From the IMG/VR virus record IMGVR_UViG_3300027759_003166: DNA of 64,000 bases. The stretch is one strand, 5' to 3'. Source of the stretch: a virus (Duplodnaviria; Caudoviricetes). The notes below the pieces were generated by a model that saw only the letters and a program-made list of their open reading frames with translations, made no database searches and had not been told where the DNA came from. Positions 22,874 through 35,350 of the stretch are shown here, piece by piece. The position numbers and the translations under genes are program-made. Numbering within the stretch: the first letter of the stretch is position 1; every line of letters starts with the position of its first letter.

Positions 22874-23353
22874 TTACTGAAACTCATTATCTTCGCGATG
22901 TCCTTGTCTACCTGCCATATTAGAGTCAGTTTCGCGAACTTCTACTTTACAGCACCAAACTCTTGCAGCTTCTTCGCTGCCACAATTTGGTAAGAAGATT
23001 GTGTTTACATATTCATACAAGAAATCAGCAAGACCTTCGCAGCCTGTTTTTTCTACTTCTGTAATCTTAGCAAGTTTTAGTCTACCAAGCTCTAATAAGT
23101 GTTCACGCATTGGATCATCCTGTGCCACAAGCAATGTGTGATCAAACCAATCTTCTAAACAAGCCTTGAGTGGTTTTAATCCACCAAAGTCTGTACACCA
23201 ATTACGTGCGTCCAATGTATCGCATTCAAATTCAAAGTGGAAACTCATTGCGTATCCATGAATTAGATTACAATGACTTTGGGCACGCCATTGACGATAA
23301 GCTACAGGACCAATTTGTCTGTATGTTTTTGTACTAAAATATTTCTTTGCCAT
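22874..23353 (-). CDS. queD: 6-carboxy-5,6,7,8-tetrahydropterin synthase / PTPS family
   Basis: C..IHGY, DFGGLK, FDH, E..N catalytic pattern. Confidence 0.85.
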   Translation of the reverse strand: MAKKYFSTKTYRQIGPVAYRQWRAQSHCNLIHGYAMSFHFEFECDTLDARNWCTDFGGLKPLKACLEDWFDHTLLVAQDDPMREHLLELGRLKLAKITEVEKTGCEGLADFLYEYVNTIFLPNCGSEEAARVWCCKVEVRETDSNMAGRQGHREDNEFQ

Positions 23354-23421
23354 TATTTTCTCCTATGTTATAGCATAGGCGGCAGAGTTTGTATACCGGG
23401 ATGAACGCCGAAGGCCGGTGT
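23354..23421 (-). promoter_or_regulatory. candidate preQ1-I-like riboswitch with SD-sequestering hairpin
   Basis: P1 ACCGG/CCGGU, loop ending AUC, A-rich tail UACAAACU, hairpin CCUAUG/CAUAGG covering AGGAG. Confidence 0.5.
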
Positions 23422-23434
23422 AATAATATTTAGT

Positions 23435-24019
23435 TTAACGCTTTTCAACGATCTTGTCAACCAGGCCATATGCCAATGCTTCTTCAGCACTCATAAATGT
23501 ATCACGATCCATATCTCGTTCAAAGTCAGCATAAGTTTTTCCTGCTGTATTGTGTTCGACATATAACTTGGTTAACATAGTTTTCATCTGTGTAATTTCT
23601 TTGTATTGTATCTCAATATCACTTTGCATACCACGAGCACCACCACTTGGTTGATGTATCATATGACGACTATGTGGCAACATATAACGCTTGCCAGGAT
23701 GACCCGCCTGTGCCAAGAAACTGCCCATACTACAGGCTTGACCCATAACATAAGTACAGACATCTGGTTTAACAAATTGCATAACATCATAAATGGCCAT
23801 ACCACTTGTAATTACACCACCGGGACTATTAATGTAAAAGTGAATATCTTTCTCAGAATCGGCACTCTCCAAATGTAGCATCTGTGCCACTACAAGATTG
23901 CTGCTATGATCATCAACTGGTCCATTTAGGAACACGATGCGCTCATTGAGCAAACGACTAAAGATGTCAAAAGCACGTTCGCCTTGACCAGTCTTTTCAA
24001 CCACCATTGGTACTAACAT
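23435..24019 (-). CDS. clpP: ATP-dependent Clp protease proteolytic subunit
   Basis: [23 protein letters not shown] (Ser), MIHQP (His), DRD. Confidence 0.95.
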
Positions 24020-33904: not shown

Positions 33905-34573
33905 ATGTTTTTAGATAACAAATACACAAAAATTTATTATAAATTAATCAATAATGCATTATTGCGAAATCATGTTAAACTACCACATGATGGATTTCAA
34001 GTACATCATATAATACCAAAGTGTATTGGTGGAACCGATAATAAATCAAATCTCGTAACATTACATTTTAAAGAACATAGGGTATGTCATTGTTTATTAA
34101 TCAAAATGCAAATCACTAAATCTGCAGAAATTAAAATGCGACATGCTTATGGTTTTTTTAACAAAAGTAGTCGGTACAATGGACCTAGATATAAACGAGG
34201 TAAGGACAACATTTTCTCCAACCCTAAGATTATTGAGCAAGTTCGAAGTAGAATGATACATAATAATCCTATGAAAAATTCTGCTATACAAGAAAAACGG
34301 TTAGTATCGTGGAAATCTAATCGTGCCGCTAAAAACTTTATACCTCCAAGAATACTTAAAGATAAATTTATTACACCATTTGGTATATTTAAAACTAAAA
34401 AAGAAATACAGAAAGTTTTAAACATACCTGAATGGACTTTAAATACCATCTACAATAATTTAGATTCTTTTCCTATATCAAATGGAAGAAGTAGTAAAAA
34501 GATTGCACATTTAAATATTGATATAAACAAGACTTGGAAAGATAATGGATTTGACTTACTTACCGTTTCTTGA
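33905..34573 (+). mobile_element. free-standing HNH homing endonuclease
   Basis: QVHHIIPKCIGG..NLV.L..EH...H; antisense to neighbours, overlaps folE 3' end by 18 bp. Confidence 0.75.
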
Positions 34574-35350
34574 TTGAAGTAATATATTATCAAAGAACTC
34601 TTTTTTTGTTCCTTTATCAGTATTAAACGCACCTTTAAGTACAGTAGTTTGAGTTAAAGAACTATGTGCCATTATGCCTCTATTGGTGCAGCACCCATGT
34701 TCGGCTTCGAGATAAACAGCTACGTTTTCGCTGTCTGTGGCTTTCATGATTTCACGAGCAATGTCGTTACAAAGTTCTTCTTGTAGAGTACCGCGTCTAG
34801 CACACCATTGTGCGATGCGTGTATACTTACTTAATCCTATTAACTTCTGCGCGGCCAAGATTCCGATATAGGCAACGCCACTAACAGGTTGATGATGATG
34901 ACTACACATTGATTTAAGTTCACTACGAACTACCAACATTCCTTCATACCGTTCATCGCTGTCATTTGGAAATGCAGTTGCATCAGGTGCCGTCTCATAT
35001 CTACCTGCCATAATTTCATTGAAATACATCTTGGCCAAACGACGAGCAGTGCCTTTACTATTAGGATCATTCTCTCGATCAATAAGCAATGTATCCAATA
35101 CAGTTTCAAATGCTTCTGTGGCTTCGTTAATCAAGTGTTCCTTGTCAGATTCTGCAATATAGTCACTGATATTGTCACCAGCCCAAAATCTTTTACCGTC
35201 AAGACGCATACGGCTACGTAACGCCTCGCTCAAATACTTGCCAGGACTATCTTTCTTAGCAAATAATTTATGCCCGTCAACTGGCACATACTCTTGTGCC
35301 GTAATTCCATTTATAGTTGGATCAGGTTTAAATGTTCTATTTTCACTCAA
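34556..35350 (-). CDS. folE: GTP cyclohydrolase I
   Basis: TARRLAKMY, SMCSHH, GLSK, LQEE, HGCC..RG. Confidence 0.93.
   Translation of the reverse strand: MSENRTFKPDPTINGITAQEYVPVDGHKLFAKKDSPGKYLSEALRSRMRLDGKRFWAGDNISDYIAESDKEHLINEATEAFETVLDTLLIDRENDPNSKGTARRLAKMYFNEIMAGRYETAPDATAFPNDSDERYEGMLVVRSELKSMCSHHHQPVSGVAYIGILAAQKLIGLSKYTRIAQWCARRGTLQEELCNDIAREIMKATDSENVAVYLEAEHGCCTNRGIMAHSSLTQTTVLKGAFNTDKGTKKEFFDNILLQSRNGK

Follow-up and report, generated by a model that had tools for sequence, protein, structure and literature searches.

A covarying H-type pseudoknot in the leader of phage queD-like genes: a candidate riboswitch class outside preQ1-I

The window, by which we mean the whole 64,000-nucleotide stretch of DNA that was analysed (Caudoviricetes record IMGVR_UViG_3300027759_003166), carries on its minus strand a gene for a QueD-like protein of the 6-pyruvoyl-tetrahydropterin synthase (PTPS) family. 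The protein scores well under the NCBIfam QueD equivalog cut-off, and a sequence search of the PDB with it gave no match. ClpP is encoded by the gene upstream of the leader, and FolE, the pathway partner of QueD, is encoded further away on the same strand. An earlier note on this DNA had listed a series of leader elements between 23354 and 23421, and a direct reading of the window sequence finds all of them as written on the minus strand. The features of the locus, from 5' to 3' along that strand, are:

34556-35350, minus strand: FolE (GTP cyclohydrolase I), 11 kb from the leader
23432-23460, minus strand: sigma-70-like promoter TTGACA-17 nt-TAAACT, with 10 of 12 consensus matches
23415-23419, minus strand: P1 5' strand ACCGG, pairing with CCGGU
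23410-23414, minus strand: L1 CCUUC, with a conserved YCU at its start and a length of 3-9 nt in relatives
23406-23409, minus strand: P2 5' strand GGCG, in the pseudoknot supported by covariation and the swap test
23400-23405, minus strand: L2 UUCAUC, with near-invariant columns in which UCR is conserved and the invariant C adjoins P1
23395-23399, minus strand: P1 3' strand CCGGU, pairing with ACCGG
23367-23395, minus strand: internal sigma-70-like element TATACA-17 nt-(TGc)TATAAC, whose -10 in the window is without the final T
23382-23394, minus strand: L3 AUACAAACUCUGC, consensus WUAYAAAYUCYGC
23378-23381, minus strand: P2 3' strand CGCC, whose last two C also open the 5' arm of the SD hairpin
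23362-23379, minus strand: SD-sequestering hairpin, a perfect 6 bp of CCUAUG (23379-23374) with CAUAGG (23367-23362) around the loop CUAUAA
23360-23364, minus strand: Shine-Dalgarno (SD) sequence AGGAG, covered by the 3' arm of the hairpin
23353-23351, minus strand: start codon ATG of queD
22874-23353, minus strand: QueD-like PTPS family protein, 159 aa (PF01242, 1.5e-14; PHROG 2389 'QueD-like')

P1 has 5 bp and encloses a 15-nt loop (23414-23400) which contains GGCG and ends in UUCAUC. A 25-mer spanning P1 is unique within the window, and a model of the motif finds one strong match there at 66.8 bits, the next best reaching 10.7 bits. A scan of the window with Rfam 15 at gathering thresholds returned 27 tRNAs only. 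Folded as a single sequence, the leader is no better than its shuffles (z of -0.62), so the case for a leader RNA rests on comparison with relatives. On the opposite strand the complement of the P1 5' strand and L1 (plus strand, 23405-23421) forms a terminator-like hairpin followed by a T-rich run; it depends on the window's own L1 (CCUUCGG), which is not conserved, and is probably incidental.

A blastn search of the clpP-queD region against 50,697 deposited phages gave distant ClpP matches only, which indicates that there is no close cultured relative. In IMG/VR, 361 contigs encode a close relative of the QueD protein, and about 70 of the best 80 of these have the same leader. This set was picked by the QueD protein alone and not by the motif, so that the conservation of L3, of L2 (...UCRNC) and of the hairpin is no artefact of selection. 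About 10% of the close queD relatives have unrelated leaders and the element is therefore dispensable. A DNA-pattern scan for the L3 core added at least 120 contigs to the protein-picked set. Just downstream of the motif lies a gene of the PTPS/QueD family in 186 of 187 IMG/VR loci; three paralogue classes can be told apart among these downstream genes, at 85-98%, 57-62% and 37-46% identity to the window protein. ClpP is present in only 21 of the 187 loci. With the PTPS gene constant and ClpP mostly absent, the element is to be assigned to queD rather than to its upstream neighbour. Five large records of related phages contain the motif, four of them in one copy and the fifth, of 524 kb, in two, each ahead of its own queD; a PTPS gene follows each copy that was inspected. 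The DNA runs in which the leader stretch occurs are lake, river and other freshwater metagenomes from several studies, and the motif is almost confined to uncultured freshwater phages. Our literature searches found no description of a phage RNA motif associated with PTPS or queD.

The alignment of related queD leaders, a comparison that the earlier note had suggested, finds both P1 and the loop-tail pseudoknot conserved. P1 is kept in more than 100 related phage contigs, and its second pair covaries (G-C 43, C-G 10, U-A 1), the other four pairs being near-invariant. Among 55 distinct in-register sequences, the partners of P1 and P2 are paired in 95.2% of cells, compared with 85.4 ± 0.8% in column shuffles (equalled in 0 of 500), and the covariation score is 0.257 against 0.076 (again 0/500); as many of the sequences are closely related, these shuffle counts overstate independence and are no true probabilities. 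When the partner was slid by 1-3 columns as a control, only 39-66% of cells were paired. By helix, the paired cells amount to 99.3% for P1 and 90% for P2, and pairs occur in which both partners have changed. The count of such double changes stood at 86/500 against the shuffles, whereas the other measures beat nearly every shuffle; all of the measures, the both-side changes included, lie above the slid controls. Three of the four P2 pairs have both-side changes: one is A-U in 28 sequences, G-C in 13 and C-G in 6, and another is C-G in 42, G-U in 5, U-A in 3, U-G in 2 and G-C in 1.

This formal count leaves out the sequences with an L2 longer by one nucleotide, that of the window among them, since both MAFFT and covariance-model alignments put them out of the P2 register; they were judged by eye and by an alignment-free partner swap. 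In the swap, loop and tail of the same leader form a duplex of -5.0 kcal/mol, compared with -3.96 kcal/mol for swapped partners (z of -8.6). By eye, the complementary loop:tail classes are GGCG:CGCC (the window), GGUG:CACC, GGCU:AGCC, GGGC:GCCC/GUCC, GGCA:UGCC/UGUC, GGCAU:AUGCC and AUGGCAU:AUGUCAU, and a second leader class pairs as ACGAC:GUCGU or, with a bulge, as CGA(A)CAU:AUGUCG, so that P2 ranges from 4 to 7 bp. Several of these classes contain G.U pairs, which on the other strand would be A.C mismatches; the constraint is thus on the sense-strand RNA of queD. The pseudoknot is also kept in the leader class whose platform downstream is of an entirely different kind (AUGUCGUCAAACUUGCU...) and in one locus (L160) with other hairpin arms and no -10-like loop. 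Thus, the GGCG:CGCC pairing proposed in the earlier note stands up to both the shuffles (0/500 for covariation) and the swap, and the comparison of sequences indicates that the queD leader is an H-type RNA pseudoknot in which both helices are real. The most conserved unpaired segment is L3, constant at 13 nt, with an invariant UCYGC just before P2.

The hairpin over the SD sequence is similarly supported by its relatives. Its arms covary, being CCUAUA/UAUAGG in two loci (L130 and L182) and CUCUAUU/AAUAGAG in L160, and its loop has anything between 6 and 13 nt; this variation speaks for an RNA hairpin and against the operator of a dimeric protein. To follow the accessibility of the SD we used partition-function models of 147 unique leaders, in nearest-neighbour folding that does not include pseudoknot energetics. 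The mean probability that the SD is unpaired was 0.29 in the free leader, 0.35 with P1 to L3 withdrawn from pairing and 0.72 with the P2 3' strand withdrawn as well; this last step raised accessibility in 144 of the 147 leaders and lowered it in none. In the main classes the predicted partner of the SD is the region of the P2 3' strand in 70-99% of cases, and the pseudoknot and the SD hairpin are consequently mutually exclusive. In the main class the hairpin over the SD has two nucleotides in common with the P2 3' strand, and the exclusivity of the two folds is as the earlier note had proposed.

The models predict that formation of the pseudoknot frees the SD, that is, an ON logic. Without ligand, the P2 3' strand would join the hairpin that buries AGGAG. 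A candidate ligand would lock the pseudoknot and thereby withdraw the two closing G-C pairs of the SD hairpin; the SD would then open and queD, or queD-queE in many relatives, would be translated. A phage-borne translational switch ahead of a queD-like gene, as the earlier note had imagined it, is thus consistent with the folding models and with leader parts that are conserved and covary in more than 100 phage contigs.

The genes around the motif place it in a metabolic module. In 103 of the 187 loci folE is found on the same strand, 1-6 kb upstream of the motif, and all five of the large related records contain it. A QueE-like radical-SAM gene, not found within the 64-kb window, is present in all five related records by protein search; the genes of the relatives match several QueE equivalogs with scores under their cut-offs. 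Of the 76 motif loci that hold such a gene, 74 have it 3' of queD on the same strand, often directly adjoining. In one related record (G003, 221500-225500) the genes 3' of queD encode a radical-SAM/SPASM protein of 365 aa and a QueE-like protein of 280 aa. A pair of PP-loop proteins of 211-222 aa encoded elsewhere in the same record reach the Pfam QueC cut-off marginally and match the C-terminal part of QueC only. A gene of the TGT/DpdA family was not detected in the five related records, and a search for HPPK detected none. We had read these phages as being without a deazaguanine route, a reading that is withdrawn in view of the QueE-like and weakly QueC-like PP-loop genes of the relatives. 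The regulated module runs from GTP through H2NTP to CPH4, probably to CDG, and onward, and with this composition both 7-deazaguanines and pterins stay candidate classes of ligand. Phages use synthesis of the 7-deazaguanine and pterin type for hypermodification of their DNA.

Two promoter-like elements accompany the leader. The outer one, TTGACA-17-TAAACT, overlaps the end of clpP, with the clpP stop codon inside its -10, and judging from its position transcription from it would begin about 5 nt before P1. In several relatives a TTGACA-16/17-TATAAT without mismatch has its end 7-11 nt before P1; in others the stop codon of an upstream gene directly precedes the motif. The inner element has its -35 (TWTAYA) over the junction of P1 and L3 and a TGn-extended -10 in the loop of the SD hairpin. 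Among the main-class leaders, 110 of 115 have TAnnnT at a spacing of 17-18 nt (TWTAYA-17/18-TGnTAnnnT), mostly TG-extended; neither the second leader class nor L160 has the element, and the window's version, with TATAAC as its -10, went uncalled in the promoter scan. Transcripts begun at this internal promoter would, from its placement, be without the aptamer and without the hairpin's 5' arm. The promoter is a possible second layer of control beside the RNA switch. Another possibility is that it acts as a sigma-dependent pause site. An internal promoter could explain part of the conservation of the leader. As for transcription, one contig from a lake metatranscriptome contains the aptamer of a relative, with 5 differences in 57 nt (window 23368-23424) and a different sequence of about 70 nt ahead of P1, and a second reads from queD into a class-2 leader. 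These contigs are weak evidence of transcription, as they show no transcript ends and could derive from carried-over DNA.

What we find is what would generally be looked for in a riboswitch, namely a covarying aptamer in the leader of one set of genes and an expression platform that overlaps it. We consider it probable, on the strength of the comparative data, that the queD leader senses a metabolite, i.e. that it is the aptamer of an undescribed, phage-specific class of riboswitch. Its core has about 42 nt, made up of P1 with 5 bp, L1 beginning YCU..., P2 with 4-7 bp, L2 ending ...UCRNC and L3 with 13 nt. Going by gene context, the ligand would be a guanine-faced metabolite of the route from GTP through H2NTP and CPH4 to CDG/preQ0, with H2-neopterin triphosphate, CPH4, CDG and preQ0 as the named candidates. 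The fuller proposition, that in this new phage-specific class a pseudoknot of ~50 nt would sense a guanine-faced intermediate between GTP and the 7-deazaguanines or pterins and switch ON the translation of queD(-queE), seems to us evenly balanced. Against it stands that, to our knowledge, ON switches ahead of biosynthetic genes are uncommon except where a substrate or a signal is the ligand; the predicted direction would fit either of these better than an end product.

The earlier note had taken the leader for a likeness of the class I preQ1 riboswitch (preQ1-I, examples of which are found at B. subtilis queC and in T. tengcongensis), and the likeness holds in part. Both are small pseudoknots of the H type, with two G-C pairs at the top of a 5-bp P1, and have in common a P2 made of loop and 3' tail, an invariant C at the junction of L2 and P1, an A-rich start of L3, and a position in front of a gene of the 7-deazaguanine pathway with translational control through the SD, which here is predicted. 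What does not agree is the lengths of L3 and L1 and the logic of the switch. In preQ1-I the A-rich L3 is short and ends directly at the 3' strand of P2, and the ligand, with P2 stacked on it, sits above P1. Here L3 has 13 nt with the invariant UCYGC, as opposed to ~6-7 A-rich nucleotides; L1 has 3-9 nt rather than 2-3, so that P2, of up to 7 bp, is prevented from the stacking on P1 seen in preQ1-I; and the SD lies in a separate hairpin that competes with P2 and is predicted to give an ON switch, whereas preQ1-I is OFF, its fold with bound ligand either hiding the SD or making a terminator. The covariance search with preQ1 models that the note had proposed gave nothing at the motif: permissive Rfam scans of the 271 nt around the site and of 12 diverse motif loci had no match to PreQ1 or a related family at E ≤ 10, and RF00522 run on the five related phage records reached at best 15 bits or less, never at the motif, compared with a gathering score of 39 bits. 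Matches to PsrR1, sR41 and miRNA-type families in the permissive scans were rejected as noise. By these sequence models the leader is not a member of the preQ1-I family RF00522, and membership in class I is not supported; the note's proviso 'possibly ligand-variant' was well placed. We have to ask whether it could be a true but divergent class I preQ1 riboswitch, holding preQ1 or preQ0 in the same pocket and differing by insertions only, with the C at the L2/P1 junction, the U of L1 and an A of L3 as candidates for that pocket. The two closing G-C pairs of P1, the invariant C, the A-rich start of L3 and the H-type P2 speak for it, as does an operon encoding QueD-like and often QueE-like enzymes. 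It is nevertheless improbable in our view, given that RF00522, at E ≤ 10, has no match to the motif in the window or the 12 loci and stays at or below 15 bits elsewhere in the five records, that UCYGC is interposed between the A-run and P2 in the 13-nt L3, that L1 has 3-9 nt, that the logic is predicted to be ON and that TGT/DpdA was not detected in the five related records.

The main rival is another one, which we hold to be unlikely: that the pseudoknot is real but serves as a translational operator bound by a protein (either QueD or an RNA-binding activator or repressor of the phage), or as a constitutive structure for translation or mRNA stability. All of the support for RNA structure fits this equally well, and work on T4 established that phages use leader pseudoknots and hairpins as protein operators, the pseudoknot in the T4 gene 32 leader being an example. 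A co-evolving protein interface would be expected to drift, yet L2 and L3 are near-invariant over three PTPS classes (37-62% identity) and varied upstream genes, and the element is riboswitch-like in going with one metabolic gene family, one copy per genome. As we read it from the aligned sequences, loops that stay near-invariant while the proteins diverge to 37-60% identity fit a small, non-evolving ligand better than a co-evolving protein partner. After the divergent preQ1-I comes, as the least probable of the three and in our estimate very unlikely, a conservation at the level of DNA, in which an upstream terminator stem-loop is followed by a sigma-70 promoter (TWTAYA-17-TGnTATAAT) for queD and by an SD hairpin that silences read-through, all without a ligand. 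It would make sense of a hairpin loop whose conservation is otherwise unexpected and of the TAnnnT at 17-18 nt, mostly TG-extended, in 110 of the 115 main-class leaders, in which the -10 variants (TACACT, TAAAAT, TACAAT) keep T1, A2 and T6; there is also a likeness to T4 genes e and 49. The terminator part, which calls for a G+C-rich hairpin with 3-8 nt in the loop and a U-tract after it, is contradicted by P1 itself, with a loop of 13-19 nt and a tail of AUACAAA or UUACAAA without a U-tract, and no intrinsic terminator was called on the minus strand at the site. The promoter part leaves the covariation of P2 between the loop and the promoter 'spacer' unexplained and does not account for G.U pairs that are allowed on the sense strand only; the pseudoknot and L3 are kept in leader classes that have no -10-like element, the element goes with queD and not with the upstream gene, and the -10 of the window is TATAAC. 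As P2 covaries within the spacer and the pseudoknot is kept without the -10 element, a promoter cannot explain the pseudoknot.

The metabolite-sensing reading finds parallels in other compact RNAs. In guanidine-III (ykkC-III, RF01763) and in SAM-II/SAM-V riboswitches a single pseudoknot of 40-55 nt, with long loops that line the grooves of the helices, is the full aptamer; the queD leader has in common with them a compact H-type pseudoknot as the putative full aptamer and predicted translational control, and differs in its conserved nucleotides and gene association, a comparison made by cmscan only and giving no match. Of a different kind is the resemblance to T4 genes e, 49 and I-TevI, in which the SD is likewise under the 3' arm of a hairpin with the -10 of a promoter in its loop (here a match to the consensus). 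At T4 genes e and 49 the promoter lies within the hairpin that sequesters the ribosome-binding site, and its transcripts escape the repression. The T4 genes are without an upstream pseudoknot aptamer, their switch is purely temporal, and the -10 in our window is degenerate (TATAAC).

The motif is tiny, covaries clearly and is abundant, with copies in hundreds of lake-virome contigs, and its place is ahead of the genes for the queD(-queE) step of 7-deazaguanine/pterin synthesis. We know of few riboswitch classes that are essentially confined to viruses. If the metabolite-sensing reading is true, uncultured freshwater jumbo phages would have metabolite-level control over a pathway of nucleobase modification, and the identity of the ligand would reveal what these large phages monitor during infection. 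The leader could also add an aptamer chemistry related to that of preQ1-I yet distinct from it, and a compact ON switch for engineering.

Outside the viral records, scanning 596 Gb of genomes from bacteria and archaea with a 19-mer pattern gave at least 120 stretches, for a chance expectation that we estimate at ~200. Among the matches listed, one had a full model score (66 bits); the rest had 18-32 bits, scores which arise from the searched word itself. The single true match (L246) is on a contig of 183,398 bp in a metagenome-assembled genome of Haliscomenobacter sp. EUL_031, with QueD 98% and FolE 85% identical; a QueD this similar on a phage-sized contig indicates the same phage. Its presence there is either a binning artefact or a hint of a Saprospiraceae host.

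A few loci depart from the usual arrangement. In two of them (L031 and L032) the motif and the hairpin are followed by the first five codons of queD and a stop, and each contig has its intact queD behind an unrelated leader; a rearrangement or an insertion seems to have uncoupled the switch from the gene. In four others an extra open reading frame lies between the SD hairpin and queD (0.7-0.9 kb in L173, L183 and L139; also L128), so that the motif there fronts the inserted gene; three of the inserted frames have no Pfam match and that of L128 encodes a cupin. The record with two copies of the motif (G004, IMGVR_UViG_3300027749_002876, 524,565 bp, rated 100% complete) holds two diverged folE/motif/queD/queE-like modules at 28-32 kb and 497-503 kb, near its two ends and in opposite orientation, and may be either two related phages joined together or an inverted duplication of very large size.
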